Below are positions 6,253-62,115 of a stretch of DNA of 64,000 bases, piece by piece; within the stretch, counting starts at the first letter, position 1; every line of letters starts with the position of its first letter. The notes below the pieces were generated by a model. It was not told where the DNA came from. It searched no databases and was given only the letters and a program-made list of their open reading frames with translations. Position numbers and translations under genes: made by a program. The DNA comes from Eledone cirrhosa (Eukaryota): positions 69,006,001 through 69,070,000 of the forward strand of contig OZ024744.1 of the NCBI GenBank assembly GCA_964016885.1. The letters are read 5' to 3'.

Positions 6253-7400
6253 TTAGCCATCTGGCATTAACACTGGCTTAAGGTATTTGAAAGTTGCCAA
6301 GTTTTTGTGATTGCAATTCGGGCAGTGTTCAGAGAGTTTGTTCAGTAGCGAGCCCTTGGCAAATAATATTTCGTAGCTCTCTGAAATACAAAGGTCGCAG
6401 CATTTGTGTCTTCCCTTGTATGAGCGCGCTTTCTGGAATATTTTAAGCGCGAAGGGGAGGGTCCTTTTGAGGTCCCAGACATAGGAGGCGAGTGTTGTCT
6501 GATTTGATTTTTCCGGTCTTCTGAAAGAGAAGGTATGGGCATACCACCGGGTCTTAAAATTATTGGAAGTCATGCCGATGTAAGTCTTTTTGTTCTTGCT
6601 ATCATCAGTGCCTGAGATGACATCACATTTGTATACGATGTCATTTGTCAGGCATTTGTTTTCAAGTGGGCAGACTTTCTTATTTTGGCAGTTGCACAAG
6701 GCCTCAGTCCGGGGATTGGGTTCGGAGGTAGTTGGCTTATTTATTTTTTTAGAATTGAGATTGGCTATATTCTTAGCTAGGTTAGGTGTAGTGGAGTAGG
6801 AGAGTCTCATTGTGTTCTTATTGAAGATGGTGTAGTACCTATGTTGTATGTGGAAGTGTGTGTTCAGCAAAGTGAAGAAAGTCCTAGCTATAGGTGTAGA
6901 GACCTCTCTATTGAAAGGGGAGTTGTACCAACTGATCTGCCGATGCCTATTCCTCCTAGGTAGACTTGCGGTGGTTTCTAGGAAAGTTATCTTTTCTTTA
7001 AATCTGCTGCGGGCGAGGGCGTCATTGTAGTAGGAGGCGGAGGCGTTAAATATATTTTCATTGGCCGAGAGGCCAGAGATTCTAATTGAGACGCTTTTTA
7101 CTAAGTTATCAGTGATGTTTAGGGGGTGGGTAGAATTAACATTAATATCTCTAAGGGACTCGTTAGGTTTGTGGTACGGGTAATAGAGGGAAGTATCTAG
7201 GTCGAGGGTGACATCTAAAAAGTTGGCCCTAGTCATATTAGATTCTATGGTTATACTAAATCCTCGATTACGGAAGAACGAGCTTAAGTTTCTACGAAAC
7301 CCATCAGTGGTTCTGCGGTTAACCTTGTGCAGGGCGAAGAAGCCATCGTCTCGGTATAAACCTCCGGTGAGGCCAGTAAAGAGGTTCTTCAGGTGATCTA
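6253..7400 (-). pseudogene. Penelope-like element (Penelope/Poseidon type): RT C-terminal part + GIY-YIG
   Basis: GGLYRDDGF near 7345-7368 (-), NFLDVTL, YHKP, CNC..CPL..C, IVYKC...TYIGMT, CDLCISE. Confidence 0.92.
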
Positions 7401-7820
7401 AAATGTTAAGAGGTGATGTAAAATATTAAGAGAAACTTCACAATAAGGGGAATCAACCCAACACTTGAATCTGTTGATGGAACCCTCTCTCTACCTTTGT
7501 CACCCTTATTCCAGTCTTAAAGAATTAGCTTCTAAAGAATTTCCCTTTTCTTTAAACCATTAAACCCCACCCATCCTTTAGACACCTGTCTTACAGGCAT
7601 TGTTAGTCTAAGTGATAAACTACGATTGGTATTCCAAATAAAATTTCGTTTACAGTGTTCTTCCTGCCTTGTTAATACTATAGCTTCAAAGAATTAGCTT
7701 TTAATGAACTCCCTTTTCTTTAAATCCTTCAACCAATGACCTCCACCCATCCCAATCCCCACCCTCTCCTACCACCAGAAAAGAAAAGATATAAATACCA
7801 CCACTTACTTGGACAGAGCC

Positions 7821-9894: not shown

Positions 9895-9932
9895 GTCTTA
9901 ACGTTTCTGACACTAGTCCTTCATCAGAAGAA
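9895..9932 (-). ncRNA. Minimal hammerhead ribozyme (family also at 15350-15387 +, degenerate, and 34853-34890 +)
   Basis: Reverse complement: ctt-CTGATGA-aggactagtgtca-GAAACGTT-aag; palindromic AACGTT stem III. Confidence 0.65.
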
Positions 9933-10129
9933 GGAATGAGATATTAGATAGATTAAAGGGACGGGCGGGATGGAATTGGAAAAAATGTCTTAAGATAAAA
10001 ATAACAGGCCCATTCATGTTGACATCTCTTGGATTATATATATACATACATGGTGGCTGCCAACTAGTTTTCGAGTACAGCCACTACTTTATATCCATGT
10101 AGGAGAACCCCTACCGATGCACTGAACGA

Positions 10130-12167: not shown

Positions 12168-12268
<101 letters not shown>

Positions 12269-12610
12269 CGTAAACGGAAATAACAACTCAAACGGTACAG
12301 TATATGAAAGGAATATATTAGGTTAACGCTTGAAATAGCAGGAAGAGGGTTATAACGTTTCAGAAGGAAAAACGAGAAATTAGAAAGATTGAAGGGATAG
12401 GTAGGGCGGAATTGGAAAAATGTTTTTAGAGAAAAATAACAGGTCCATTCTTGCTGCCATCTCTTGGAAAACTGTTGATGCTGGCGTTTTGTCTATGATT
12501 TACTTTTTTAGAAAAGTGGATGATGGAGCGCGTCTATCTGAAAGGGAAGAAGCCGTTTAGTATAGAGCTATACGTATGAGCTCATTATATTACAGGGAAC
12601 ATTATATTAA

Positions 12611-14555: not shown

Positions 14556-15500
14556 GATCCGTACACAACTGAGGGACATATGACTTGGCATGGATAATCC
14601 CCCCCCCCCGTCACTCGTCACTCCCGTTCCTCAGACCACAGCTCTTTACATGGCTCAGTCATAGCCTCTTTTTACATCCAGGATCGCTAGCCTCATACAC
14701 CAGGATGAGAACAAATCCTGATTGCCTACTTTGAGTCCAGTTTCCTTTATGAACTCAACTCCCCTCCCCAATTACTTAAAACATTAATTACCCTTGCACA
14801 CATACACTCGCCCTTACTTTTATACCTCTAGCCGCTGTCACCCCTAACTTGTCCGCTATCACACCCGTACCTATAGCTCTTTTATGGTCAGATATACACA
14901 TACTTACAGCTCTGTACAGACCAACAACAAACATACACACACCTCTATAGGTCAGGTCTGGACGGATCAACTAACACACATGCTCACACATATACACAGA
15001 CACACACACACACGTTCACTCTCTTAAACTCATGCATACACTATCCTCACAGCTTCTTACAGACAACTAACATATACACACACACACATGCATACACACG
15101 CTCATTCACACCTATATATCCACTCTATATACGAAAGAATATTTTCCTTTTCTGTACTATACCGACGACTTCGATCACAACCTTTAAAAAAAACGGCCAA
15201 CTAAACTTCTTATACCAGCATTGAATTCAATAATTTTCTAAGAGATGGAGAGCAGAATAGATCTGCGATTTCTCAAAGAAATTGTTTTTCGTTTCTGCTA
15301 CTGATCACTCCCATCTATCTTTCTATTTCTCTCTTTAATTTCTCATTTTACTATTTGTTGAAGGACTAGCGTCCGAAACGTTAAGATTCTTTTCCAACTA
15401 TATCAAGCATTAAATTAATATATTTCATCGTTGTATTATATCGTTTGCTTTCTTATTTCTGTTTACTTTTTGCATATATATATATATATGTATATATATA

Positions 15501-20999: not shown

Positions 21000-21203
21000 C
21001 GATTGGCAGTATCGGTAAAGAGTTGGACACCATGCTTTGAAGTATAGAGTTACGGTCCGTTATGATCTGATTTCAAATCCCGCCGAGGTTAACTTTTCCT
21101 TTCATCCTTACAAGATCGATAAAACAAAGTACCAGTCACGCACTGGGTTGATTTAATCGACTTTCCCCTGCCCCAAAATTGTGCCTATATAAGAAACCAT
21201 TAT
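21000..21203 (+). mobile_element. tRNA-derived SINE (older variant with longer tail)
   Basis: ttggcagtatcggt head, conserved core, ends gtgcctatataagaaaccattat. Confidence 0.85.
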
Positions 21204-22852: not shown

Positions 22853-23655
22853 CTTCGCCTAATCAATAACCAATCGATCGACAGAATTCGGCTGCAGGTA
22901 ACTGGAATCTTTACGCGTCACAATGCTGTCCCCTGATTGACTACCGATTTATAAATTTACGTGATGACAGGAGACGAAATTCAATTTGTTCCGCTCCCGC
23001 CATAAATACCCAGCCAACGTATCTCAAACACAAATTAATAAGTTTGTGAAAAATTGGTTATTAGAGAAATTCATTCTCTAATCACTGTACAATAGAATGG
23101 TAGCATTCGGCTCTAGTTTCCAAGTTCCATGGCAAGAAATAGTGCGATAGTAACAATGGTAGTGCCTAAAACATTTATGGACATTAAATTCCAACCGGTG
23201 ATTATACGGCGATATAGAGTCGGAATTGTAGATATTTCGGCCAACCTCGTGGGTAAATCTGTCTATTATAGAACTTGTACGATTTAATATGTGAGTGAGA
23301 GAGAAAATGTATAACAGCAATTAGAGTGTATATTAAAACAAAAGACAATAAAAAAAATGTGAAAAATTGTTCAACTTACTCTCATTGTTATTCTGTTAGT
23401 TGGGAGAAAATAATAATAAGTTGACGGAACTAGCATGGGTATCACTTCTAGGACCGGTAACGTTAAATAAACTCCCACTACGGATATTACCTTCCAGTGT
23501 TCCACTACTATATACGTCTCCAGCACCGGTCAGCAGATTCTCTTCACTACGTAGAAGTTTGGCTTTTAGAAGATTCTTCACCACGTGCGAGTTTGGCTGA
23601 GAGCGCTCTATATATCCTCGTGTCCTACACAATTTCGCGTCTCATCAACGTCAGT

Positions 23656-24090
23656 ATGGATTTATACGAACTGGATTACGCCCTGAAGAACATTCCAACT
23701 CCCTCCAACAATGTTTACCAAAAGCTCCTCCTACAAAAAGCGGAAGATCTCGTCAGACGCTTAAGATGGCGAGCCCTAGCTTTTGACGGCAAAATTACAG
23801 GCACCAACAACACCTTCAACCTGAAATCGAGAGCCTACCCTCCTAAGTTAACTGAACTTTCTCCTTTCGAGACGGACCTTCTTGACTTAGTCACTAACAT
23901 TTCCTTTCGCAAACACACTAACACCTTTCAAACGAAACTCAGAAATGATATTAAGAAATTTAGGTCTTCTAATAACACCTTCGTTCTTTCCGACAAAACT
24001 AATAATATTTACGAAGTCGACAACACCACTTTCCGCCACCTGGACCATAACGCTATTACTTCTAAATATAAGAAAGCTAACCCTATGGTT
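23656..24090 (+). pseudogene. N-terminal region of a Penelope/Poseidon-type PLE ORF, 3'-truncated
   Basis: LDYALKNIPTPS...LVRRLRWRALAF...FETDL..LV.NI.FR...FQ.KL..DI...SDKTNNIY, typical of the PLE pre-RT region. Confidence 0.8.
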
Positions 24091-24274
24091 CATGGTTCAT
24101 TCTAACCCTATGTTGTGGAGGTTCATTCTGACATTACGACGAGCTTTAGATTCCAGAGTCGAGCTAGATCGATACAGATCGAACCGTGAGTTGATCGATA
24201 GCGAAACACGCGTCACTACTCAATAAACGTAATGAAGACATAATAAATAGTCCTTATTATTATTATTATTATTA

Positions 24275-25199
24275 AGTCGCTCACGGCCCTCGACCAATCG
24301 GGCAATGTGATCGGTGGAAACTCCACCTCGGCGTTCTATAGAGGATTAGTGGAGGGGAAGAGCGACGACGTACTTGGGGAAACTCTAGGCGTCGACGAAA
24401 ATCAACTAGCCAATCTCTTCGGAAGAACTTTCGGGCCGGGGCCTATGGACAACTTCCAGAAATCTCTGGCCTGGCAGTGCTACCGAGGAGCCTTGCCAGT
24501 TCGAGATAAACTCTACAGGCGTGGAGGTGCCGTGAGCCGGGCATGTCTGAGATGCGCGCAGGGCGACGAAACCGTCCTGTACGCACTCGTCCAGTGTCCG
24601 AAAATTGCTGACTTGTGGGTTTATGTCGAACACCTGCTGTCGCGTGAAGGACGGATCCGGCTATCATCTGAGTCCATCGTGAGGATTGCCCCGCCCTCTT
24701 CCTTTAGCCGGGAAGGGCAGGCAGTTTTTATCTGTCTGGTGGCCATGGCGAAAGAGATAGTATGGTGGACACGTTTGAAAGGGCTGAAGACGAGCACTTA
24801 CCTCTTCGGTGATGCCCTGATTGACTTTTTCAAATTTCATTTGAAAAGGAAAATCAGAGTAGAGAGGGAAGTGCTCTCTTCCCAGCATTTTGTTGAAAGA
24901 TGGGTGAGAGAAGCAAGAATGGCCCGAGTGAATGGGCCTACTCTGAGTATGTATCTGTAAATTAAACGTGGAAAACTGGGAGAGGGCACTTGCCTTGGTG
25001 GTCAGGGTCACTGTGGCCTTTTACTGGGCTTTCTCCACAAATGACCCTCCGAAGTCTACCCCCCATTGGGGAATTTTTCATTGTTATTTATATCCTCTGT
25101 TTTTTTACACGCAGAAATGCCCATTTGTACCGTCCTGTATTGTCCTGTACTGTCCTTAATGTCTACTTTATGTGAACCCTTGTGGTTAATAAAGAAAAC
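24275..25199 (+). mobile_element. 5'-truncated L1/Tx1-type LINE (C-terminal zinc finger + 3' UTR), highly similar to 32912-33854
   Basis: ORF 24307-24960 with CxxC-x8-(Y for H)-x4-C; aataaagaaa followed by (ATT)n. Confidence 0.92.
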
Positions 25200-25208
25200 A
25201 TTATTATG

Positions 25209-25252
<44 letters not shown>

Positions 25253-25265
25253 TATTATTATTATT

Positions 25266-26870
25266 GTTCTTTGAGTCTCAGTCATTGATATTATGTAACT
25301 GGAAAGTTTGTTGAAATGAATATCAAGCGACTACTTGCAGCCTCAGATATTCAGGACGTATTGGAGGCTTCTTGCTGTTCCCGGCAGGCATGCCTTTTGA
25401 AGCGTTCCATCCTTGGAAACTCTTTGAGATAGTACCTAGTGCACCTATGACTATCGGGACCACTTTGACTTCATGGCAGTTCCAAATCCTTTTTACCTCC
25501 CACTTTAAGTCCTGGTATCGGTTAATTTTCTCCCTCTCCTTCTCTTGTACTCTCGTGTCGAATGGGCAGGCTACATCCACAATCAGGCACGATCTTTTTC
25601 CCTTGTCCAAAACCACCAGGTCAGGTCCATTGTGTTCCAGTTTCTTGTCCGTCTGTATCCTAAAATCCCACAGCACCTTCATCTGATCGTTTTCCATTAC
25701 CGACTCTAGTTTATGCTCATACCACTTCTCAAAAAGTGGTAAATTGTTTACTTTGCATAGGTGCCAGTGGATCACCCTGCTCATCACATCATGTCTCCAG
25801 CCTTTATAGGTAGTCTGGGCTAGGTGTTTACACTCGGATACAATGTGAGCCACAGTCTCCTCTCTCTCTCCGCAGATCCTACACAGTGAGACAGCCTCCT
25901 CCTTGTAAATATGGTGTTTCAGCCACTTCGTTTTGAGAGCCTGCTCTTGCGCAGCCATTAGCATTCCTTCTGTAGCTTTTTTAAGGTCTCCTCTTTTCAA
26001 CCAGTTCTATGTCTGTGGATCTCTAAATTCAGTTTTCTCAAAGAAGGCACTGTGAAGGGATTTTTCATGAAGGTTGCTCTTTCTCCTCGTTGTTATTTCC
26101 TCCTTGGACATCCCTGGTCCATTGTCCTCTCCTTCAGTACAATTCTGAGCATTGGCTCCCTACTATCAGTCACGTATTTGTGTAGGTTATTTTTCTCCAT
26201 CTGAACAAAGTCCTCTATGCTGATAAGACCTCTTCCACCTTCAGATCTCCTTAAGTAGAGTCTATCGACATCACTCCTCTTGTGGAACATGTTGTAGATA
26301 GTCAATAGCTTCCTAATCGTCCTATCCATTTCTTTTTGTTCAGCAACATTCCATCTCAGAATTCCGGCACTGTACCTAATAATAGACACAGCTCGGGAAT
26401 TTACTGCACTTATGGTATTCCTACTGTTCAGATGTGACTTTAATACGCTCCTTACTCTCCGAATGTATTCAGATCTTATCAATTCCTTCATTTTTTTGTT
26501 CTTGATGTCATCAGCCTCCAGAACACCTAAATATTTGTATACCTCTTCAGCATCAATTTCTTTTATCATCTCACCTGTTGGTACCTGGATTCCGATGCCT
26601 CTGCTCAACTTACCCCTCTTCATCACAATGACTCCACACTTACTAATACCAAACTGTATACATATATCATTGCTGAAAATACGGACAGTGTCAACAAGCA
26701 CATCCAACTCCTTCTCACTCTTCCCGAAGAGCTTAAGATCGTCCATGAAGAGGAGGTGATTGATGGTAAGCTCTCCTTTTCCCAACTTGTATCCTGCTGT
26801 CACTTTTCGCAGTATAATGGTCAGGGGCATCAGGGCAAGGACAAACAACAGAGGGAACAGACTATCTCCC
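25266..26870 (-). mobile_element. Dong/R4-clade non-LTR retrotransposon, 5'-truncated (RT C-half + CCHC + restriction-like endonuclease)
   Basis: GDSLFPL, HLLFMDDLKL, YKYLG, GGRGL; CRIC..ETVAHIVSEC, RHD, PDLVV..IVDV..K..Y..L; flanked by (TAA)n. Confidence 0.92.
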
Positions 26871-26899
26871 TATTATTATTATTATTATTATTATTATTA

Positions 26900-27085
26900 G
26901 GGCGGCGGATTGGCAGTATCGGTAGAGGGTTGGACGCCATGCTTTCCAGCATAGTTACGTCCCTTTATGATCTGAGTTCAAATCCCACCGAGGTTAACTT
27001 TGCCTTTCATCCTTACGGGGTCGATAAAATAGAGTACCAGTAATGCACTGGGATAATAACTGGCCTTGTACCTAAAGTAGAAACA
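26900..27085 (+). mobile_element. Full-length tRNA-derived SINE inside (ATT)n
   Basis: Head, core and tail as in other copies; (ATT)n on both sides. Confidence 0.92.
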
Positions 27086-27106
27086 ATTATTATTATTATT
27101 ATTATA

Positions 27107-27801
27107 GCGATGAAACCGTTGTGCGCGCACTCGTTCAGTGCCCGAGCATTGCTGACTTGTGGAGCTATGTCGAACAGTTGCTGTCACGTGTGGGACTGAT
27201 CCGGTTGTCGACTGAGTCCATTGTGCAGATGGTCTCGCCGTCTTCCTTTAAGGAGGAAGGGCAGGCGGTTTTCATCTGCCTGGTGGCCATGGCGAAAGAG
27301 ATTGTGTGGTGGACAAGGTTAAAAGGATTAAAGACAAACACTTTCCTCTTCGGCGAATCCCTGATTAACTTTTTCAAGTTTCACTTGAAGAGGAAAATCA
27401 GGGTGGAGAGGCAAGTGCTGCTTTCTAGCAAGTTTGTTGAAAGGTGGGTGAATGTAGCGAGAATGGTCCGAGTGAACGGGACCGCTCTGAATATACGTCT
27501 GTAGTTTGAGAGATGGAAAAATTGAGAGAGGGCGCTTGCCCTGGTGGTCAGGGTGGCTGTGGTCTTTTGTGTGGTTTTCGCCACGAGTAACCCTCGGAGG
27601 TTTCCTCTCTATTGGGGAATTTTTCTGTTTCAATTTTCATTTTATTGTTTATATATATATATGTTTTATGGCTTTTTTCCTTTTCTTATATAATAATAAA
27701 AATATTTACACGCACAAAACCCACATCGCACCGTCCTGTACCGTCCTGTGCCGTCTGTGATGTTTTTCTTGATGTCAGCCCTTGTGGCCAATAAAGAAAT
27801 C
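27107..27801 (+). mobile_element. 5'-truncated L1/Tx1 LINE of a second, diverged subfamily
   Basis: ORF 27121-27504 homologous to 33177-33593; ends cccttgtggccaataaagaaatc(att)n. Confidence 0.9.
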
Positions 27802-28036
27802 ATTATTATTATTATTATTATTGAATGCCATGGTTGACGGAGGCTCGGCTCTGTAAGGTATAGTAATTTTTAACCGTTAAAACAATTGTAAATTGTTTAA
27901 AACTTGAACCAAATTGTTGATAAAGACACCCTCCTCCTCGTGAGAGGGGTCTTTCTGTCCTTTATTTGGCCCTTCGGGGTTAAATAACCAGTTATTGGGG
28001 TTTTGTACCCAATATTCATTTTAAACAAAAAACAAC

Positions 28037-30173
28037 ATGGCTACGAAAAAGAAATTTCATACGTCACTCCCACTCATTCCGTCTTCTTCCTCAATCATCA
28101 CTACAGCAGAGAGAAGATTGTCTCTTTCCATCCCTTCTTTAAATGTGTCTCTCTCCCTCCCTTCTCTTTCGCAAGTGACGAAAGAAAAGAAAATCTCGTG
28201 CAAAGCGTGCAAGGTTTCTCCACGACGACGACGACAGCGACGAAACAGGTGTGCGGGAAATACGAAAACCCAGTTCATTCGTCTGACGTCAGGAATAATA
28301 GCAGTAGCAGCCGTAATAACAACAGCAACAGTGACAATGAAAACAACAGTAGCAGCCGCAAGAGCATCACCAGCAGCATAAACAACAACAGCATTAGCAG
28401 CAGCAACACCAACAACAACCACAGCAACAGCGGCGGAGGCAGTAGTCGTAGTACCTGCAGCAACAACAAAAGTACCAGCAGCTCTGACGACAACAACAAC
28501 AGCAGCAGCAGAGAAAAACCAATCTCATTTGCAGGTATTGCGAAAAACTTGGAAACAATCCCCATAACAAATGAGGAATTAGAGGAAGCGAAGAAGATGG
28601 TGACAAAGAACGGACACCGAGCAATCTGCAAGGCAGCGGAAAAATTTTTCGAAACCCAAGAGCACTGTACGGTCACGTACCGTACAGTAAGTACAAAATC
28701 CCGTAGGGTGGAAAGAGCCACAGAGGCCCAAATACAAAAAGCCTTGGGGTCTGTGTGGCAGCGGAAAACGCACATCACCCGAGGCAAAAAATATGCCACC
28801 GTAGACGTACTTTTTGCCACACCCCAGGAGGCAAAGGCCCAATCAGTAGTGACCCTAAGGAGCGAGGAAATGGTGTTGGTGCCCTCCTACTGCGGGCAAA
28901 AAATTGTGAGGGTCAAACTGACCCACGTCCCCCCCCCGGAATGGCCCCTTCTTGGCTGGCCGCGTCTGTCCTCGTCGGAATCGAGGACAAAACAACTGTA
29001 CTGCAAGTACAGAAAAAAGTAAGAGAAGATTGGGTAGGCACCTCCATTGAGATGCTAATCCAAACCAACCAGGAGTGCATCGAAGCTATCCCGGATGTCA
29101 TAGACTTCGATAACGGCACTCAACTGCCCATAAGTGTTGAGGGCAAACGCCCGAAATGCTTTCGCTGTGGATCGAAGACTCACCTCAGGGCCTTCTGCAA
29201 CGAGAAGACCCTGAGAAAGGAGAAAACCCTCCTCCTTCCGAATACGGCTCCACGGCTACCAGCAACAGGACAAGCGGCAACCAGGAACGATAGGTCCGTG
29301 GCACCCATACCCACTCCACGGAAATCAAAAACAGCAGCAGCAGTGGAAATATTAACAACAACAACAGCAATACCAAATGCAGCTGCAACAGAGACTCCAG
29401 TGCAAACATCACCAACAACAACAAGTGAAAGAGTGGAGCTGGTACCCCTCCCCGACCTCACAGAATCAGACATGGAGTGTGAGGTAGGAGAGGGATGGCA
29501 AAAGGTCGTAAGAAGGCACAAACGCAGAAGCAGCGCATCGTCGCCTTTGAAAAGTGAGGAAAGAAATGAGAAAAGGGTAAAGTCTACTGCAAAGAGACCC
29601 ACAGCAGCAACACCACCAATACCATCACCACCCACACTAGCACAACCATCACCACCGGCGACAACCCCACCGCCAACAACACCTTCAACACCACCACCAC
29701 AAGCACCAACATCGCAAACACAACAACAAAACACACACACCCAGCAACAACGACAAGAAAATAGCAGAACCACACCCCACCCCCAGAAAAACAAATGCAC
29801 GGCAATAAATACACACAACAAGAAACTAATGACTTACATAATTGAACACACAGACATTTCACAACAGGACTACATAATACCAGCACCAATCAAAACGCCA
29901 ACTAACATAAGACTGCTAAAAATAGCACAGAAACAATACACAAACATTAAAACGAAATTCCCCAACGCAGTTGGTGATTTCAGGGACCTAGGAGGAATCA
30001 TCAATCGAAGAGTATATTCAGACATTCTCTTAGAAGAGCCGACGACCAGCCGAAGGGACGATTCAACGGTCCCTTCACCAGACGATCAAGTGAAAAGGGA
30101 TGTAAAAAACCATCCCTCCTCTACCAAAAGTACGGTAAGTGGTCTTTCCCATCTTTTCCACTCTATTTTAAAC
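28037..30173 (+). pseudogene. Tx1 ORF1 (gag-like; low-complexity N-terminus, RRM-like middle, zinc knuckle), frameshifted across three frames
   Basis: ATG 28037 (MATKKKF); segments in ORFs 28037-28381, 28003-29022 and 28755-; shift at the poly-C run near 28930. Confidence 0.75.
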
Positions 30174-33100
30174 ATGACCTCACTCAGAATAGGCAGCATA
30201 AATGCGCGTGGCTTGGGGTCGTCATGGAAGCAGGGTCACCTGCTCAACGACCTCAGGTCACTAAACATAGATGTAGTGGCCATCAGCGAGACCAGAATCT
30301 CCGAAGCACGGGCCTTCGCACCGATCTTCGGCGGCTACGATGTGTACGCATCTCCCAGCCGTCCTGGATCGGGTGGAGGAGTTGCTGTGCTTTTTCGGAG
30401 AGGTTTGGATCTCGCCATACGGGCCATCTTCCTGGACCCAGAGGGTAAGCTGGTGGTGCTGGACGTGACCAGCGGAGACGGGCAAGCTTTCAGGCTAGTG
30501 GCCGTCTATGCCCCGACAGGAGCAGGGCGGCCTGATTTCTTCCGGCGTCTGGAGACCTTTCTTGGAACGTCCCGCTCTTTAGTGTTAGTGGGCGACTGGA
30601 ACGGGATCTTAGATGCACGCTGGGACTGTGTGGGATTAGCGGATAGGGGTGGAGGGTGCAAGAGCCTCACCAACCTGCTCAGGCGTTTTGAACTGTCTGA
30701 CAGGTACCGATTGGATTTCCCGAATGTGCCAATGTGGACTTGGACAAACCGCATAGGGTCATCCAGATCATATCTAGATAGAGTATTTTGTAGGGAAATA
30801 GATAGGTCTAGCATAGGCTGTCCACAATTCAAGATAGTCAGCTACACGGACCACAAATTCGTGATCTGTGTGCTTGACTTAGATAGGTTTCATAGACGAG
30901 GACCCGGCTACTGGAAGCTAAACGCGTCCTTACCAGCGCGTAAGGCCTACAGAGACCGGATTAGCGAACTAGTTAAGCGGGCGTTGACGGGGGCGATCGT
31001 CAACAACAAGTGGTGTTTTGCTCTGAAAAGAGCGATTAGAATAGAATCGATTAGGTTTAGTAAGGCTTTAGCAATAGAGAAAAATAGAGCAGAGGGAGAA
31101 CTAGTTAGAAAATTAGACGAGGCGCTTAGCAAAGGCATTGCGACCGACGTGCTTGCGGCGAAATTGGCCCTTGACCAATTCTTCAATGCAAAGCACGAAG
31201 GTTGCGTTGTCAGAGCAAGGGTGCGTGCTCTCAGACACGAGGGGACGAAAGCCGTTCAATGGGCCCGAGTGGCGGAGGCGCGTCGTGGCAACAAAGCCAC
31301 GATCCGGTCATTGGTGGACCACGACGGGCGCATGCTACTCGATCCCGGGCAAATGTGTGAAGCTTTTCAGCGACACTTCGCTCAGCTGTTCGGGGGCAGC
31401 GGTGGGCCGGGTAGAGGGATGGACTTTAGTGTCTACCTCGACGGACTGCCGCGGCTCTCGGCCACTGAGGCGAAGTGTTGCGAAAAGCCGATAACAGCCG
31501 CTAAAGTAAGGGAGGCAATGACTGGCGGCACAAGGGGTAAATCGCCTGGTTTGGATGGTCTGCCCTATGAACTTTACGTACAGATGCCAGACTTGTTCGG
31601 AGGCCTCTTGTCGGACGTCTACTGCAACTGGCAACAGAACGGGAGAATTCCCAGTTCTGTGAGCCGAGGAGCGGTGGCACTGCTGAGAAAGGATCTGAAC
31701 AAGGCGGATAACATAGACAATTTCCGGCCAATAACTCTGCTAAACACAGAGTTCAAGATTTTGGCCAAGGTGCTAGCAAAGAGGTTGGCGCTTGTCGTTG
31801 GTGGTCTGGTGGGAGAGGCGCAGACATGCGCCATTCCCGACAGATCCATCCACGACAACCTCCACCTCATGCGATACATCATAGAGAGGGTAGCTAAAGA
31901 ACCTGGCACGGGTGGGTCCTTGATCAATTTAGATCAGTCGAAAGCTTTCGATAGGGTCGACCATCGTTACCTAGCGGCAGTCCTGAGGGCGGCTGGCTTT
32001 GGGCCCGTCTTCAGAAGCTGGATCGCTGCCATGCACAGCGACATCTGCTCTGTGGTGAGAGTGAACGGTCACCTGTCGGAACCGTTCAACATCATGCGCT
32101 CGGTCCGCCAAGGATGTCCCCTCTCGTCCCTCTTGTACGTATTGACTCTCGAGCCATTACTACACAGTCTGGAGACGTTGAGGGGAGTCCCGCGCGAACT
32201 AGGATGCGGAAGATCCGTGTCAGCATATGCGGACGATGTCACCGTAGTGGTGTCGAACGCCAAACACATCGAGGCGATCGGCACTACACTAAGAGAATAC
32301 GAAGCGGTGACAGGAGCAATGATCAACCAGGAAAAGTCAGTGGGCCTGCAGCTCGGCACCTGGAGAGGCAGGTCCATGCCGTCCAACAGCGTCGTCGGAC
32401 GCTGGACGGACGGACCGGTTAAATTGCTAGGGCTCTGGTTCGGTCCGGACCTCCAGACGGACAAAAACTTGGACGAGGTGACGAGCAGGGTGGCTTCTCT
32501 CACCCAGAAATGGGTGGAGAGGAAGCTATCCCCTGAAAGGTCGAGCGGAGGTGGCTAACGCGTACATCGCGTCTGTCATCTGCTACCGCCTGACCGTCGT
32601 ACCTTGTCCTAAGCCTCGCCTGACTGCGCTGGAGCGTTTGCTCTTTCGCTTTTTGTGGAAGGGACGTGCTCCGATGGTCAGGCGGTCCATCTGTTGTCAA
32701 CACCCGCTACGTGGAGGGCTGGGCATGCCGTGGCTGATGATGCGCAGGCACGCGCTCAGGCTACGACATCTCCACCTCTTCCTCGACGGTGATCAGGTGT
32801 GGTCGCCGTTTGCTAGGCGCGTATTTCCCCAGCTCGTTTCCTTGACGGAGCTGCAGTCCTGGGTCAAGCGAAGACCGAGAGGGAGCACCTGGAGACTGGA
32901 ATGTCTTCAGGCGCTCACAGCCCTCGACCAATCGGGCAATGTGATCGGTGGAAACTCCACCTCGGCGTTCTATAGAGGATTAGTGGAGGGTAAGAGCGAC
33001 GACGTACTTGGGGAAACTCTAGGCGTCGACGAAAATCAACTAGCCAATCTCTTCGAAAGAACTTTCGGGCCGGGGCCTATGGACAACTTCCAGAAATCTC

Positions 33101-33593
33101 TGGCCTGGCAGTGCTACCGAGGAGCCTTGCCAGTTCGGGATAAACTCTACAGGCATGGAGGTGCCGTGAGCCGGGCGTGTCCGAGATGCGCGCAGGGCGA
33201 CGAACCGTCCTGCACGTACTCGTCCAGTGTCCGAAAATTGCTGACTTGTGGGTTTATGTCGAACACCTGCTGTCGCGTTTAGGACGGATCCGGCTATCAT
33301 CTGAGTCCATCGTGAGGATTGCCCCGCCCTCCTCCTTTAGCCGGGAAGGGCAGGCAGTTTTTATCTGTCTGGTGGCCATGGCGAAAGAGATAGTATGGTG
33401 GACACGTTTGAAAGGGCTGAAGACGAGCACTTACCTCTTCGGTGATGCTCTGATTGACTTTTTCAAATTTCATTTGAAAAGGAAAATCAGAGTAGAGAGG
33501 GAAGTGCTCTCTTCCCAGCATTTTGTTGAAAGATGGGTGAGAGAAGCAAGAATGGCCCGAGTGAATGGGCCTACTCTGAGTATATATCTGTAA
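30174..33593 (+). pseudogene. Tx1 ORF2 (APE + RT + zinc finger), frameshifts near 32530 and 33203
   Basis: Starts MTSLRIGSINARGL; continues in ORFs 32551-33282 and 33177-33593. Confidence 0.92.
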
Positions 33594-33852
33594 ATTAAAG
33601 GTGGAAAACTGGGAGAGGGCAATTGCCTTGGTGGTCAGGGTCATTGTGGCTTTTTACTGGGCTTTCTCCACAAATGTCCCTCCGAAGTCTCCCCCCTATT
33701 GGGGAATTTTTCATTGTTATTTTCATTGTTATTTTTGTTACATCCTCTGTTTTTGTTTTTTACACGCAGAAATGCCCATTTGTACCGTCCTGCATTGTCC
33801 TGCACTGTCCTTAATGTCTACTTTATGTAAACCCTTGTGGTTAATAAAGAAA

Positions 33853-33896
<44 letters not shown>

Positions 33897-33903
33897 GTTA
33901 TTA

Positions 33904-34617
33904 CTCTTTGAGTCTCAGTCATTGATGTTAGTTAACTGGAAAGTTTGTTGAGATGAATATCAAGCCAATACCTGCAGCCTCAGATATTCAGGACGTATCG
34001 GAGGGTTCTTGCTGTTCCCAGCAAGCATGCCTTTTGAAGCGTTCCAAAAAGCGTGAAGGGGCCAATTTTCTTTCACCATCCCTGGAAACTTTTTGAGATA
34101 GTCCCTAGTGCGCCTATGACAATCGGGATCACTTTGACTTCATGGCAGTTCCAAATCCTTTTTACCTCCCACTTTAAGTCCTGGTATCGGTTAATTTTCT
34201 CCCTCTCCTTCTTTTGCACTCTCGTGTCGAATGGACAGGCCACATCCACAATCAGGCACGATCTTTTTTCTTTGTCCACAACCACCAGGTCAGGTCTATT
34301 GTGTTCCAGTTTCTTGTCCGTCTGTATCCTAAAATCCCACAACACCTTCACCTGATCGTTTTCTATCACCGCCTCTGGTTTATGCTCATACCACTTCTCA
34401 GAATGTGGTAAATTGTTTACTTTGCACAGGTGCCAGTGGATCACCCTGCCCATAACATCATGTCTTCAGCGCTTATAGTGAGTCTGGGCTAAGTGTTTAC
34501 ACTCGGATACAATGTGAGCCACAGTCTCCTCTCTCTCTCCACAGATCCTGCACAGTGGGCTAGCCTCCTTCTTGTAAATGTGGTGTTTCAACCACTTCAT
34601 TTTGAGGGCCTGCTCCT

Positions 34618-34619
<2 letters not shown>
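33904..34619 (-). mobile_element. Second Dong/R4 copy, more 5'-truncated (CCHC + REL endonuclease)
   Basis: Homologous to 25266-25950; flanked by (TAA)n. Confidence 0.92.
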
Positions 34620-34678
<59 letters not shown>

Positions 34679-34852
34679 ACTCTGCTTACTTACCGGAAAC
34701 TACACATCGAGTTCTGACTTTAGTGAACCTACAGCAACTGGACGTTACAATCCCTAAGAGATGGCAACATGAATGAACCTGTTCTTTCTCTAAAAACATT
34801 GCTTTCCGATTCCGCGCTGCCCGTCCCTTCAATCTTTCTAATTTCTTATTCT

Positions 34853-34890
34853 ATCTTCTGATGAAAGACTAGCTTCCGAAACGTTAGGAC
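34853..34890 (+). ncRNA. Minimal hammerhead ribozyme
   Basis: tctt-CTGATGA-aagactagcttcc-GAAACGTT-agga. Confidence 0.6.
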
Positions 34891-35040
34891 CTTCCTCCTG
34901 CTATTTCAAGCTTTAAACTAATATATTCCTTCCATATACTGTACCGATTATGTTGTTGCTTCTGTTTCACTTTTACACACACTCACACACACACATGTGT
35001 GTGTGTGTGTATATATATATACATATATATACTTATATAC

Positions 35041-55610: not shown

Positions 55611-55661
<51 letters not shown>

Positions 55662-55663
<2 letters not shown>

Positions 55664-58600
55664 AAGGCGGGTAAAATTCCCGAGATCTATGGACGAGTTC
55701 TCTCCAGCGGTCTCTGCTGTCCCTCATTATCGCTGCCATATCCTGCATCTCCAACAGACGAGTGTCTGTCCTTAGGGCATCAACATATGTTAACCTTGGT
55801 CTTCCTCTTCTAGTGTGTCCATGTAGGGGCTCCCAAAGGAGCACTGAGTGCAATGTCAACTCTGGATGTCGGTGAGCATGTCCAGCCAACCTCAGTCTCC
55901 TCTGTGTCACTTTTGAGCTGACTTTTGGGATGCTCCCATACAGCTCTGAGTTTTTCATCCTCAGTGTATACTGATTAATGTTCAGAGCCATCCTCAGCAT
56001 TCTCGTGTAGCACCCATCCACCATCTGAGTGAGTTTCTTGGTCAGTGTCCAAGTCTCAGACCCATACAGCAGCACAGACTCCACTACAGCAATGAAGAGG
56101 CGGATTTTCAGGTCTCTACGAAGGTCCGACTTCCACACCGATCTCAAGCTGTGGCACGTCGCCCAGGCCTTGCTATTCCTCTCAACCACATCATCTTCCG
56201 TATTCCCAATCTTTGCTCCCAAATACAGGAAGTCCTCAACCAATTCCAGCGGCTTCCCGCCTACATTAGTGATCCCCCTCTGGCTTCTCAACATTCTCTA
56301 CCAGATATTTTGTTTTAATCTCATTCATTCTCAGCCCCACACTCATCGACACAGTCTCAACCTCCCGCATCAAATCCTCTGCCTCCTTCACTGTATTTGT
56401 CACCAAAACTATGTCGTCGGCAAATTCAGCATCCGATACCTTTTTCGCCCTAACTCTCCTGCTCTGAGCCGGTGCTACAATAAAGCCAGAGTCCTGGTGT
56501 TTCTCCAGTGCAAGGCGCATACAATAGTCCACTACGATGATAAAAAGGTAGGGAGCCAATGTATCTCACTGGAGCACTCGAGCCAGTATCTCAAAGAACT
56601 CTGTCATCCCATCAGGTGTAATGACTTGGGCTTTGGTGTTGGTGTAGAGCAGTGATATCAGGTCCACTATCTTCTTGGGGATTCCATAAGCCTGTAAGAT
56701 CTTCATCAGGTAGTAACGGTCCACAGAATCAAAGGCCTTCCCAAAGTCAATGAAAACCATGACCGCAGGAATGCACTTTGCTCTAGCTCCCTCTAATATC
56801 CTCCTCAGCATCAGGATGTGACTGGTGGTTGATCTACCCTCTCTGAAGCCGTTCTGGTTGTCCCTGAGCTTCTTCTCCATCTCAGGCTGGATCCTGTTAA
56901 GAATCATCCTGTTGAGCGTCTTTGCCACAAGTGACGTCAGTGAGATCCCCCTGTAGTTGTTGGTGTTAGAGAAATCTCCCTTCTTTGGCACTGGGACGAT
57001 GTTACTGACCCACCACTGATTCGGGGCAACTCCTTTCTCCAGTGCCCCGTTACAGAACCCCAGGATGATATCATAAAAATCACACCTCTTCATCACCTCT
57101 GATGCCACTCCATCTTCTCCATGAGCCTTGCCCTCCTTGATCTTCTTCTTCGCTCTCTGAAGCTCCTCTCTGGTGAAGGGCTCTGTCTCAACATCCAGTT
57201 CCTCAAACAGCCGCCTGATCTCCCCAGTGCTCTGGGCTGTGGAGGGTGGCTCTCCTAGTAGGGTCCTAAAATGGTCTAGCCATTTCCTCTTCCTATCGTC
57301 GGGCCCCGTTCCCTGGATCTGACTCGAACACCTTCTCTTCCTCCCTGTGATCTCGTTGATGATCATCCAGCTCTCCTTACATCCAGATCTGTCAACCGCT
57401 CACTCCACACTTCTGATCTTCTCTATCAGTGCCTCCTCTCTGACCTCAGTGTAAGCGGTACAGAGCTCTTCCCTCATCACCTCCACAGTCTCCATCCTCT
57501 CCTCCGTAGGATCAGCATAGAATTGGTCCCTGGCAGCTTTCAGGTGTTCTCTGGCTGCACACACTTTTGGGTTTGCAGAGCTGACGTGCTTCCCTTTGTT
57601 CTTTTTCCTCGGCACCAGGGTTTCACTTGCTTCCGCCACTGCATTGGTGAAGTGCCCGTACCTCCTCGTCACACTCTCCTCAGTCCATCCAATCTCTCTC
57701 TCCTCTGACTCTCCACACAGAGCACTAAACCTGTTTCTCACTTCCACTGTGAACCTCTCCTGTAGCTTATCATCTTCCTTGAAAGCTCCCCAGTCATAGA
57801 TTGTTCTCCGGGACTGAGCCTTGCTCTTTCTTAAGCTCACGCGGACCTCACTCATAACAAGCCGGTGGTCACTACCCAGTGTACTGAAATAGCTGTATGG
57901 TTCCGTGTTCAGAACACTATTCCGCCACTTTTTCCTCACCAGAATGAAATCAATCTGGGACTTGGACAGGTGCATATCTGAGATGTAGGTCCACATCTTC
58001 CCCAGATTCTTCCTAAACCTTAGGTTGGTCGCCATCAAGTTCGCCTCCAGCAGGGTGTCTCTCAGTAGTCTTCCATTTCAGTTGGTGTTGTTATGGAAGT
58101 ACCAGCAAGGATCTTCACTGCCCTCCTTACTCAGATGTGCATTGAAGTCCCCCAAAACAAGCAGGATATTGTGTGCCTGAGTGGTGTTGACAGCTCTACA
58201 CACCTCCTCATGGAACTCTTCCGCATTCGCATCACTGTCCCCCTCGGTTGGACTATAGGCTGAGATGACTGTCAGTCTTGGGTTTCCATTGAAGGTCACC
58301 CTCAACACTCGCGGGGAGATAGGCATTATTTCCCTCACCAACAGATTGGTTTTTGCACTGAACACAAAACCCACTCCTCCTACTGCAGCATTTGTTGTGT
58401 TCTTCACTGCCGATGTAGTGATGAGCTGGCTCTTCTTCCCAATCATCACACTCCTCACGGGCTTATCGTGTAGAATACTGTGTTCTTGGATCGCAAGTAT
58501 CTGTATACCACTCTCCTCGAACAGATGTCCCAACTCCTCTCTCTTCTCCAGCGTCCGAATAGTCCTCACATTCAAAGTGCCCATTTTGATGGCTCTTCTG

Positions 58601-58973
58601 CAGGACAAAACTGCATTCTTTATATTTGTCTCAGAGACAGCTGATCCATCATCCACTGGCCCTCTCTGTGGCTCTAAGCCAGCAGAGTCATAAAGACCAG
58701 GCTGCTCCTTGACAGTGTAATTAGGGGCTCTAACCCTAGTGCTGTTATATCGACTCTACATATTTCTTGTCAATGGCTACAATACCTTACCGGCGCCACT
58801 CGAATAAGGTAGTTATTTAACCCATAAATGGAGCCCTAACTGGTACTACCACACCGGGCCGGGCCGACCTGGGAGTCATGACAACTAAGGGGTAACTCCA
58901 CATTCCCCACATCTCCTGAACTCCCGAACTGGAGCCTTGCCACTGGATGTAGTTTAATGTCATACCCAGGACA
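55662..58973 (-). mobile_element. Near full-length RTE-clade LINE (APE + RT), disrupted by stops/frameshifts
   Basis: MGTLNVRT, IQE, SAYSPT, LGDFNA, QIDFIL, SDH; KKGD..NYRGISL, QNGFR, FIDFGKAFDSV, FADD, YLGA, LLYGSETW, RGRP..W; no C-terminal zinc finger; (TA)n at both ends. Confidence 0.93.
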
Positions 58974-59009: not shown

Positions 59010-59196
59010 AATTGTTTCTACTTTAGGCACAAGGCCAGCAATTACCAGTGCATTACTGGTACTTTATTTTATCGACCCCGTAAGGATGAAAGGCAAAGTC
59101 AACCTCGGCGGGATTTGAACTCAGATGGTAAAGGGACGTAACTATGCTGGAAAGCATGGCGTCCGACCCTCTACCGATACTGCCAATCCACCCACC
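59010..59196 (-). mobile_element. SINE with 19 bp TSD taataatatatatagtaat (58994-59012 / 59197-59215)
   Basis: Family match and TSD. Confidence 0.92.
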
Positions 59197-60115: not shown

Positions 60116-61697
60116 TTATTGTTCATTTAGCTTGGGTTTGAATTTATCAATAAAATTCTTTTCTTTGATTTTTCTCTTGATTTCATTTGGGCTGTGTAAT
60201 TTGTAGAATGGGAATATTATAAATATTCCCTGACCACATGTTGCCAGGTGGCCGCTTAGGGGTATCTGACGGACATTTGGGTCTCTGATTTGTTGACGGT
60301 GTACCCGTGCACGTTCCGATAGTGCATTTCCAGTTTGACCGACATATAGTTCTTCACAATTCGGGCATTTAATGCAGTAAATTAGATTTCTGCTTTTGCA
60401 GTTCATATTTGCATTTGTGAATATTTTTCCAGTTTTTGTTTTCATATATTGACCGGCGTGTATGGATTGACATGTGCCGCATCGATTATCATTGCATTTA
60501 GATACAGTGAATGATTGGTCTTTGTTGTTAAGGTCAAACTTTGCTTTTGTTAGCAATTGCTTCAAATTTTTTGGCTGTCTTTTACTAAGAGTCAAAGATC
60601 GATCTGTGATTAAGCCTTTTAATTCATTACTTTGAGCAATGATCGGTAGGTTTGCTTTGGCAGTGTTGAAGATATTCTGGTGACATGGGTTGTGTGTCAT
60701 TATAAATGGTATGACCAGTTCTTGGTTTCTTCTTCTTTGGGTTGTTCTAAGTTGTTGTATAGGTATTTTTATAGCCCGCTGTATGCCATTTTCTATAAGT
60801 AGAGATGGGTATTTTTGTTTGAGCAAAAATTCTCTTAGTTCTGTTAGGCGTTTGTACCTGGTATTCGTATCTTCTACAATGGTACAAATTCTTCTGGCTA
60901 GGCAGTATGGGATGTTGCGTTTTGTATGAGGTGGATGGCACGACTTAAAATTCAGATATTGATGGGTGTCTGTGTGTTTATAATATATATCCGTGGTAAT
61001 GGTGGTGTCGTTTTTGATTATCATTATATCTAGGCATGGTAATTTGGTCCTACTCATCTCTTTTGTGAATTGGAGAGATGGGTGTAGGTTATTCAGGAGG
61101 ATATTGAACTCATCCAGAGTATCTAGAGATTCTGTCCAGATGATGAAACAGTCGTCAAGGTATCTCTTCCAAGATTTTTCAATGTACTTTCTAAAGTCAG
61201 TACTATATTTTTCCTCTATTTCTTGGTAGAGTTGTTGTTCTAAGTATCCCATTACAGAGTTCGCGTAAACGGGAGCAAACTTCGTTCCCATCGCTGTGCC
61301 TCTAATTTGGATGTAATTCTTTCCATTGAAGAAGAAAGTGTTGTTTTCCAGAATAAGTTTAACTGCGTCTAATATAAATGGCGCTGTGAATCTAATGGGA
61401 ATCACTTCTCTATGTTTTTCCACCCAGTATTTAACCGCCTTTATTCCTAAATCATGTGTAATGTTGGTGTAAAGGCTTACCACATCAAAACTGAGTAGAA
61501 GTGAATTCGTTTCCGTGGTTTTGGGAAGATGGGACAGGAAGTCGATATCATCCCGGATGAAACTGGGTATGTGAATACATAGTGGTTTCAAAATAATGTC
61601 AACAAAATTGCTTAGACGGTGAGTGGGGCATGTTGGACCAGCTATAATAGGTCTAAGTTTTAAGTCTTTTGGGTGTAATAATTTAATGTACTCACTG
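60116..61697 (-). CDS. PLE reverse transcriptase + GIY-YIG endonuclease (Neptune-like), uninterrupted but 5'-truncated
   Basis: LRPIIAG upstream of the listed start, SFDVVSLYTNI, GTAMG, RYLDD, YYKHT, CxxxxCxxC, LIYCIKC...YVGQT, FKPKLN. Confidence 0.93.
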
Positions 61698-62115
61698 TTT
61701 TATTGATAAATTCAAACCCAAGCTAAATGAACAATAATAACGCCTAGGGGTATTACTTCTACTACCACTATGACCACGACCACTAACAACAACAACAACA
61801 ACAACAATAATAATAATAATAAAAGTGATGTTGATGGTGATGATTAATAGAAAATGCTATTTTCATCATTTCAAAAAAGCAAAACAATTGATACGTTGGA
61901 TATGACTATTGGTCGTTAGCATGCTCAACCAGCCGTGACGCTTAAACCAATCAGCTGTAGTAATTCAGTGAAACTACACACTGATTGGTCGAAATACAGT
62001 TTACAGGGCTTTGCATTCTGGAGCCACTTTTCTCTGTATAAAATGTATAAAAGGTAGGAAATTTACCCATCTCATTACAGTTGAAAATTGCAAACTCGAC
62101 TGTCACCACATATCA

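Follow-up and report, generated by a model that had tools for sequence, protein, structure and literature searches.

In the 64,000-nucleotide stretch of the Eledone cirrhosa genome considered here (contig OZ024744.1 of assembly GCA_964016885.1, positions 69,006,001 to 69,070,000, forward strand; henceforth the window), six retroelement copies lie end to end between positions 24254 and 34677. They are of three kinds: L1-group long interspersed nuclear elements (LINEs) of the Tx1 type, LINEs of the R4/Dong type, and one short interspersed nuclear element (SINE). Seven period-3 runs, all of them reading ATT on the plus strand, separate and bound the copies. In our reading, which we consider rather probable, the six copies differ in age and entered one (ATT)n/(AAT)n microsatellite singly, served by two enzymes, those of Dong and Tx1, and not by three. 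Microsatellite targeting, convergence and target regeneration are principles already known. Likely new is an (ATT)n-preferring member of the microsatellite-targeting Tx1 elements, found beside ordinary Dong behaviour.

Six copies on seven ATT runs

The arrangement emerges from a reading of the sequence, from Tandem Repeats Finder (TRF) and from a run scan; together with domain searches, these bear out the layout of six elements on (ATT)n spacers that a first-pass annotation of this DNA had claimed. Its further statements, that orientation is fixed by class (Tx1 and SINE on the plus strand, Dong on the minus strand) and that no element interrupts another, agree with the element map. A (TTA)7 run of 21 bp (24254..24274, plus strand as all runs) opens the stack; unique flank borders it on the left and the truncated 5' end of the first element on the right, and no recognised element tail adjoins it. 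This element, Tx1a (24275..25199, +), is a 5'-truncated L1-group 3' fragment of 925 bp with the C-terminus of open reading frame (ORF) 2, a zf-RVT domain and the 3' untranslated region (UTR), and with a 3' hairpin at 25175-25187. An imperfect (ATT)22 (25200..25265) joins it tail to tail to Dong a (25266..26870, −), a 5'-truncated R4/Dong-type LINE of 1.6 kb that comprises the C-terminal part of the reverse transcriptase (RT), a CCHC finger and a PD..D endonuclease and has a 32-bp deletion near 25409. Between the 5' end of Dong a and that of the SINE lies (TAT)9.7 (26871..26899). The SINE itself (26900..27085, +; 186 bp) has an A-box-like motif at 26911-26922, a B-box-like motif at 26976-26984 and a Tx1-like 3' hairpin site at 27062-27072.

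Further to the right, a 20-bp (ATT)6.7 (27086..27105) leads from the 3' end of the SINE to the truncated 5' end of Tx1-2 (27106..27801, +), 696 bp of a second subfamily with 80.8% identity to the long Tx1 copy and a 3' hairpin at 27778-27788. The 21 bp of (ATT)7 (27802..27822) connect the tail of Tx1-2 with the 5' end of that long copy, a Tx1-type LINE of 6.03 kb (27823..33854, +). It possesses a 5' UTR, ORF1, ORF2 with apurinic/apyrimidinic endonuclease (APE), RT and C-terminal zinc region, and a 3' hairpin at 33830-33842. The first-pass annotation had called it full; near-full-length it is, but not intact, its ORFs being frameshifted and its 5' end only plausibly complete. An imperfect (ATT)16 (33855..33903) forms the second tail-to-tail joint, here with Dong b (33904..34618, −), 5'-truncated and reduced to 715 bp with the endonuclease region and the 3' end. 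Finally, (TAT)19.7 (34619..34677) closes the stack, with the truncated 5' end of Dong b on its left and unique flank on its right.

In the 53,501 bases of the window outside the stack, only two perfect ATT runs reach at least six units, covering 66 bp (0.12%), and four reach at least five. That seven runs share one polarity and sit precisely where elements end is far from what chance would give, though the locus was picked as striking. The runs 26871-26899 and 34619-34677 are touched by no element 3' end and both are target-derived, the former because it lies between two 5' ends, those of Dong a and the SINE, where no tail can sit. The run 24254-24274 touches no recognised 3' end; what lies to its left may be the end of an element that was not recognised.

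The Tx1-ATT-Dong unit, 1.7 kb in size, is present twice. Its Tx1 halves differ at 26/924 positions (2.8%), its Dong halves at 54/683 (7.9%), and a single duplication of the unit is rejected because the halves diverge unequally (Fisher p = 4e-6). Compared with contigs of two sequencing runs, the long Tx1 diverges by ~1-1.8% (25/2370, 8/626 and 20/1104 differences against run X9; 14/1516 against run X1), Dong a by 6.8-8.3% (82/1205 and 18/217, respectively). Dong b has the read-majority allele at 11/11 listed sites where Dong a departs from it, these sites being drawn from the best 40 of 2,031 rows. The SINE differs at 7/170 positions (4.1%) from the majority of its relatives in the window, whose own range is 1.2-9.7%. 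If a clock of 0.0036 per million years is applied (PMC13282606; statements on published systems rest here and below on parts of the cited papers), the ages would be roughly 4 million years for Tx1 and 19 million years for Dong a, provided that the host is an octopus and that Dong a is not of a rare subfamily. The unequal divergences and differing ages make it very probable that the elements are separate insertions, as had been claimed. Tx1a appears younger than the Dong a it adjoins and so would most simply have been inserted second, into an ATT run that already existed.

Reads of four of 16 runs were compared with 25270-33850, the rows at internal ATT runs being left out. The joint counts stem from run X14, a restriction-site-associated DNA (RAD) run whose reads begin and end in keeping with SphI and MluCI sites. 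The joint of the Tx1 3' end with the Dong 3' end is carried by at least 1,444 of its reads (1,090 + 354, with about 36 starts), a count taken from the best two rows, beside which there are 2,281 further joint rows. These joint reads correspond to 1.1% of the 136,210 reads that extend from the Dong site as far as the 3' end of Dong. A loose end resembling ATT is seen at this terminus in 76,031 reads. A Dong-ATT-Dong joint occurs in 253 reads, all with one start. About 5,500 reads span the last 146 nt of Tx1 with the mate downstream, as compared to 27,305 for a like-sized internal Tx1 fragment. Very roughly, 5-20% of the Tx1 3' ends have a Dong neighbour, against 2.4% expected from the window flanks, an estimate made crude by copies from the polymerase chain reaction (PCR), by size selection and by subfamilies. 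The Tx1-ATT-Dong joint claimed for this locus is a real and recurrent type, found again in another sample; the order of insertion is not given by the reads.

Dong, Tx1 and SINE sequences

The translation of Dong a displays a CCHC finger and a PD..D motif, together with weak Pfam matches to RT and zf-RVT. Dong b is 92.1% identical to Dong a. Identities of 68% and 73% were found with a single-ORF relative of 1158 aa, which has its best solved matches in R2 proteins and has no APE match. It is this organisation, an RT with a CCHC finger and a PD..D restriction-like endonuclease (REL) behind it in one ORF and without an APE, by which the elements are assigned to Dong; a named R4 sequence does not occur among the 120 matches listed for Dong. 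Both stack copies (2/2) have (TAA)n, in element sense, at the 3' end and at the truncated 5' end. Outside the window, 13 stretches were picked for Dong-like matches in animal contigs that are contained in two bacterial metagenome-assembled genomes (MAGs), G001 and G002. They hold 27 ATT runs of at least five units, 17 within 300 nt of a Dong-like match and 10 farther away. All of the 17 nearby runs are in Dong polarity, and 12 of them are found on the 5' side of the nearest Dong-like match, no more than 120 nt away; Dong-(TAA)n-Dong stacks are present as well. The outside polarity data agree with published reports of Dong insertion in (TAA)n (PMC3812793, PMC1635306, PMC3774820). With both stack copies and every nearby outside run concordant, the earlier claim that Dong targets (TAA)n is almost certainly right.

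At the Dong 3' terminus the pure repeat is preceded by an imperfect AAT/AAC tail (25266-25275; 33896-33904; loose end at 25271). This tail is common to most X14 reads, so that part of the "spacer" is encoded by the element. The Dong-like sequences of the MAGs deserve a word of their own. G001, a species-representative bacterial MAG, includes some 1.3 Mb of animal DNA (contigs C16, C52 and C61; 370-540 kb), which abounds in Dong-like LINEs and is host contamination. In G002, a unit of ~8.16 kb that contains (AAT)13-28 runs beside Dong-like fragments forms three tandem repeats (locus L199, contig C16).

The long Tx1 matches the Pfam domains Exo_endo_phos and RVT_1; Tx1a, which is 97.2% identical to it, matches zf-RVT. 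Searched against solved proteins, the ORF2 profile of the long copy scored 4e-105 with human L1 ORF2p and 1e-37 with R2. An N-terminal APE, an RT and a C-terminal cysteine-rich region, with L1 as the nearest solved protein, place the element in the L1 group. ORF1 extends from ~28037 and its translation contains a CX2CX4HX4C knuckle at 29157-29198; Pfam gave no match there on the long copy, and zf-CCHC is above cut-off in the ORF1s of a sister Tx1 family discussed below. A CCHC knuckle marks Tx1 among the animal L1-group elements. ORF2 starts at 30174, and the reading frames are broken near 28190, 28930, 30104, 32530 and 33202. A hairpin in the 5' UTR (~27925-27951) is stable, as judged from the minimum free energy (MFE) relative to shuffles (z = -3.2 over 27900-27970). 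A similar C-rich/G-rich inverted repeat is seen in the 5' UTR of the sister family. The best named homologue of Tx1 is a protein of Argonauta hians with 58-63% identity, which makes an octopod host likely, and in an RT tree of 37 rows, built without a named Tx1 reference, the window Tx1 and the Argonauta protein form a clade of four rows (100/99).

Other copies of Tx1 or Dong were not found in the window outside the stack. The Tx1 3'-end pattern had no match in the metagenome and viral contigs scanned, nor did the Tx1 protein scan yield a locus in the viral contigs. In metagenomes the protein scan detected 59 distant loci, nearly all with less than 50% identity, and 44 loci were located in three bacterial MAGs, none of which belongs to the window Tx1 family. 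ATT ends or the hairpin were absent in the 12 metagenome loci checked.

All three Tx1 5' ends, two of which are internal truncations, adjoin ATT over 21, 20 and 21 bp. The registers of these 5' joints differ, while the 3' joints share one fixed register, as an encoded tail and imprecise joining at the 5' end would lead one to expect. Since 3/3 5' ends adjoin ATT against a background of 66/53,501 bases, the window Tx1 family is likely to prefer (ATT)n, as far as three copies at one selected locus can tell. This preference is probably relaxed and partly owed to pairing of the (AUU)n tail of the RNA with the nicked (AAT)n strand. A published criterion for microsatellite targeting is that more than 20% of the genomic copies are flanked by the target (PMC4494074).

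The SINE yields 13 blast rows in the window, itself included, and qualifies as a SINE by its short, non-coding, dispersed copies with target duplications. Among eight copies outside the stack, four have target duplications of 15-20 bp starting with ATT or ATA, one has a doubtful duplication of 9 bp, and three have none. None of the eight has a perfect (ATT)5 run preceding it on the 5' side; the copy at 59192 is situated in a degenerate ATT/ATA tract. ARAGORN and Rfam gave no tRNA match for the head, in which A- and B-box-like motifs are visible. The SINE has no match in G001 or G002, and the animal host of these contigs is therefore no close stand-in. Older variants of the SINE are seen at 21001-21200 and ~54193. 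The copy at 21001 has a C-rich tract as its end, and this tract aligns with the 3' UTR of the sister Tx1 family (shuffle p 0.004-0.012).

The partners considered for the SINE were Tx1 and Dong, both scored, and one further LINE of the window, compared by eye. Aligned without gaps to the Tx1 ends, the last 26 nt of the SINE match at 13-17 of 26 positions (shuffle p <0.0001 to 0.04), as opposed to 8-10 of 26 with the Dong ends (p 0.6-0.99); the third candidate, the other APE-RT LINE of the window, which ends in (TA)n, has no similar 3' end by eye. The ends of SINE and Tx1 share a C-(CUUGU)-G hairpin. In the stem that encloses the common 5-nt loop, the SINE has GGC/GCC, Tx1-2 has GCC/GGC and Tx1 has AACC/GGUU. 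Both sides change at three of four pairs, and the resulting covariation of 0.506 is reached by 0/500 shuffles and lies above all slid controls. Stems of at least three pairs are formed by 11 of 12 element-end motifs of the window (the stack copy of the SINE lacks the closing pair) versus none of five background matches, whose stems have only 1-2 pairs. The hairpin also recurs in 9/9 sister Tx1 end variants, with 4-5 pairs. SINEs commonly share their 3' tails with the partner LINE (PMC4824008). By this likeness of ends the SINE would appear to be driven by a protein of the Tx1 clade, an assignment to which we incline with some reserve and which does not decide between the window family and its sister. 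The findings suggest that the target specificity of the Tx1-clade partner is relaxed. The claim that the SINE is a third class converging on the microsatellite is not supported: its 3' end looks Tx1-derived, so that it is no third converging system, and none of the eight outside copies has a perfect (ATT)5 on its 5' side.

Sister arrays, rival explanations and flanks

The sister Tx1 relatives have 43-44% amino-acid identity to the window Tx1. In the RT tree mentioned above they form a group of 16 rows (100/98), which joins the window clade at 99/99. The animal DNA in contigs C3-C19 of the bacterial MAG G002 (loci L060-L100, L131-L160 and L204-L211) consists of head-to-tail arrays of such elements, with 66 matches, a period of 6.4-6.9 kb, several subfamilies and mostly intact ORF2s of 1155 aa. 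Their junctions are subfamily-specific spacers of ~12-18 nt with neither an ATT nor a TTAGGG repeat, and a solo sister copy in G001 has an ordinary, non-microsatellite duplication of 13 bp. ATT junctions are accordingly not general in the clade, yet stacking recurs in it. At locus L205 the flank before the first sister copy resembles the spacer, which hints at self-targeting. P0242, labelled as a gene of a Herbaspirillum MAG, is a 69% relative of Tx1. One might speculate, quite tentatively, that the cephalopod Tx1 clade aims at copies of its own 3' terminus and thereby restores its target with every insertion, that one branch took to (ATT)n, which it now shares with Dong from the opposite strand, that the sister branch builds head-to-tail arrays of up to about ten intact copies with no microsatellite involved, and that the 3' hairpin licenses the abundant octopus SINE. 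If all this were true, Tx1 would be a chief driver of the spread of SINEs in octopuses and of repeat hotspots anchored on microsatellites.

For the stack itself, we envisage stepwise arrival by target-primed reverse transcription. Judging from the polarity of the elements and the standard course of this process, the Dong RNA would end in (UAA)n and prime on the (TTA)n strand, and the Tx1 RNA would end in (AUU)n and prime on the (AAT)n strand; a Tx1-type protein likely carries the SINE, too. The ATT on both sides of each insertion would result from an encoded tail plus a target duplication of ~15-21 bp. With repeat left on both sides, targets multiply and no element need be interrupted, and the opposite-strand geometry alone leads to tail-to-tail joints of Tx1 and Dong. 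Growth may have been outward, from an older core of Dong a, SINE and perhaps Tx1-2 to the younger Tx1a on the left and the younger long Tx1 and Dong b on the right. Of the convergence originally proposed, in which an APE LINE, a REL LINE and a SINE meet from opposite strands, the Dong part stands, a Tx1 preference is likely in view of the three 5' flanks, and the SINE part falls.

Alternatively, only Dong may be specific, and Tx1, like the SINE, may merely favour AT-rich sites that start with ATTA, with a weak bias, and have an (ATT)n tail; the stack would then be a rare pile-up that caught the eye by its extremeness. Outside SINE copies in ordinary AT-rich sites and the sister Tx1 clade, which shows no microsatellite target, are in line with this idea, and the Tx1-Dong joint reads could be explained by Dong alone. 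Dong cannot, however, put ATT at a truncated Tx1 5' end, and three out of three such ends have 20-21 bp of it against a background cover of 0.12%. As Tx1a, moreover, appears younger than the Dong it adjoins, we regard this alternative as unlikely, if worth keeping in mind. L1-group proteins are known to jump from one RNA template to another. Such template jumping could have produced SINE, Tx1-2 and long Tx1 in one event, since the trio is same-sense, ends throughout in ATT and has a common 3' hairpin, and the ATT runs in between would be RNA tails instead of targets. The distance of the SINE from its relatives (4.1%) compared with that of the long Tx1 from its family contigs (~1-1.8%) makes such a common origin very improbable, and it would leave Tx1a with its (TTA)7 and unique flank unexplained.

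An artefact or rearrangement, be it an assembly mis-join, ectopic recombination between (ATT)n runs or a local Tx1-Dong duplication, has to be considered because no read or contig crosses the internal joints, because the two flanks are connected neither by an outer duplication nor by a continuous host repeat, and because the Tx1-ATT-Dong unit is present twice. The unequal divergence of its halves, however, rules out a single duplication, the internal runs measure only 20-29 bp, the joint type is found in reads of another sample, and similar Dong stacks exist in independent assemblies; we therefore deem this explanation quite improbable. Least credible of all, indeed hardly conceivable, is a selected safe harbour for three independent, strictly microsatellite-specific classes, the SINE included. 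To be sure, the stack SINE has ATT on both sides, SINE duplications often begin with ATT, and the copy at 59192 lies in its degenerate tract; but 0/8 outside copies have a perfect (ATT)5 at the 5' side, and a SINE has no enzyme of its own, while the 3' end of this one looks Tx1-derived.

Several points weigh against the stepwise filling of one microsatellite by two enzymes. The Tx1 5' flanks are seen only in this stack (n = 3), at a locus picked as striking. Tail-to-tail joints arise also if Dong inserts into Tx1 tails and are thus no proof of Tx1 specificity. A sister Tx1 clade does without ATT junctions, and its solo copy occupies a non-microsatellite site. No contig or read record spans the whole stack, the rows at internal ATT runs having been left out, and Dong a, instead of being old, might be a young member of a rare subfamily. 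As to the SINE, the 26-nt comparison window was picked after the motif had been seen, the hairpin stem has only 3-5 bp, and the alignment amounts to about three independent lineages. The MFE z-scores of the SINE ends are not significant (0.51, -0.76), and the stem letters of the SINE fit the sister clade, with an exact match of 12 nt, better than the window Tx1. If, finally, the SINE reflects the specificity of its partner, that specificity is loose.

The left flank of the stack gave no informative match in the window, in the animal contigs of G001 and G002, in the GIY-YIG element of the window or in Atlas, and Rfam found no ribozyme in either flank. On the right, a repeat begins ~78 bp beyond the stack in all four aligned copies, so that the stack splits no recognisable host repeat. 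This dispersed repeat (34756-34975, with copies at 12264-12465, 9895-10038 and 15238-15470) contains a hammerhead-like CTGATGA...GAAAC motif without a match in Rfam. Motifs of this kind are typical of Penelope ends. Left of the stack, the region 23467-24253 contains an ORF of 212 aa, which we take to resemble the N-terminus of a Penelope-type element and which extends up to short local duplications near 24075-24135. The next 150 bp end in AATAAA directly before the first ATT run, and the region may represent the 3' end of a seventh element that escaped recognition. Elsewhere in the window, the minus strand harbours an APE-RT LINE ending in (TA)n and two Penelope-like elements with GIY-YIG matches, one of which also matches RT (55660-58755, 60116-61699 and 6253-7425).

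Comparison with known systems

If our reading of the stack is true, (ATT)n joins the list of Tx1 targets, and nature provides a two-enzyme test in which an APE and a restriction-like endonuclease work on opposite strands of one trinucleotide repeat. It would also offer a mechanism for the octopus repeat hotspots, which are mapped in PMC13282606, a paper that in the parts covered names no targeting mechanism. The same source reports that Dong-R4 is abundant in Octopus vulgaris with 1,129 recent insertions (Table 1) and that L1-Tx1 and Dong-R4 were both recently active there. SINEs make up ~11.6% of the O. vulgaris genome. For an abundant octopus SINE a candidate partner LINE would be at hand, and ATT/AAT microsatellite markers in octopuses may often be retroelement junctions.

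Neither an (ATT)n-targeting Tx1 nor an octopus SINE-Tx1 pair was found in the literature searched, which did not comprise subscription papers and Repbase Reports; Fig. 3 of PMC4494074, a list of Tx1 targets, may name the former. Tx1 families on microsatellites are known as Kibi in (TC)n, Koshi in (TTC)n and the crocodilian elements in (TTCC)n/(TTTC)n (PMC4494074, PMC3812793), a telomeric one as Tx1-1_ACar (PMC10088271). Like these, the present element is a Tx1-type APE LINE that ends in a microsatellite in fixed orientation. From Kibi, Koshi and the crocodilian families it would differ by its likely target, (ATT)n, and it differs by its host, a mollusc, the distinction being based on target descriptions and not on sequence. 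The Dong copies resemble Dong of Bombyx mori, DongAg, DongBg and Rex6 (PMC3812793, PMC1635306, PMC3774820), REL-type LINEs in (TAA)n with repeats at both ends, from which our 3' fragments show no difference.

That APE and REL LINEs reach one multicopy target independently is exemplified by Keno, a Tx1 element, and Utopia on U2 snRNA (small nuclear RNA) genes (PMC4640811). Their target is one gene site with identical 3' flanks, whereas here it is a microsatellite that is entered from opposite strands and is added to by every insertion. SINEU, which Tx1-Mar mobilises in crocodilians (PMC4494074), is likewise a short retroposon probably carried by Tx1 and sharing its target bias. The head of SINEU is derived from snRNA, while the stack SINE has motifs resembling the boxes of RNA polymerase III promoters, and its link to Tx1 is a short covarying 3' hairpin. 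The SART and TRAS elements of insect telomeric repeats have opposite orientations. As in the present case, they represent two LINE families that share one short repeat and build interspersed stacks (both are named in PMC10088271). SART and TRAS, however, are both R1-clade APE elements at telomeres; here, two enzyme classes meet at an internal microsatellite.

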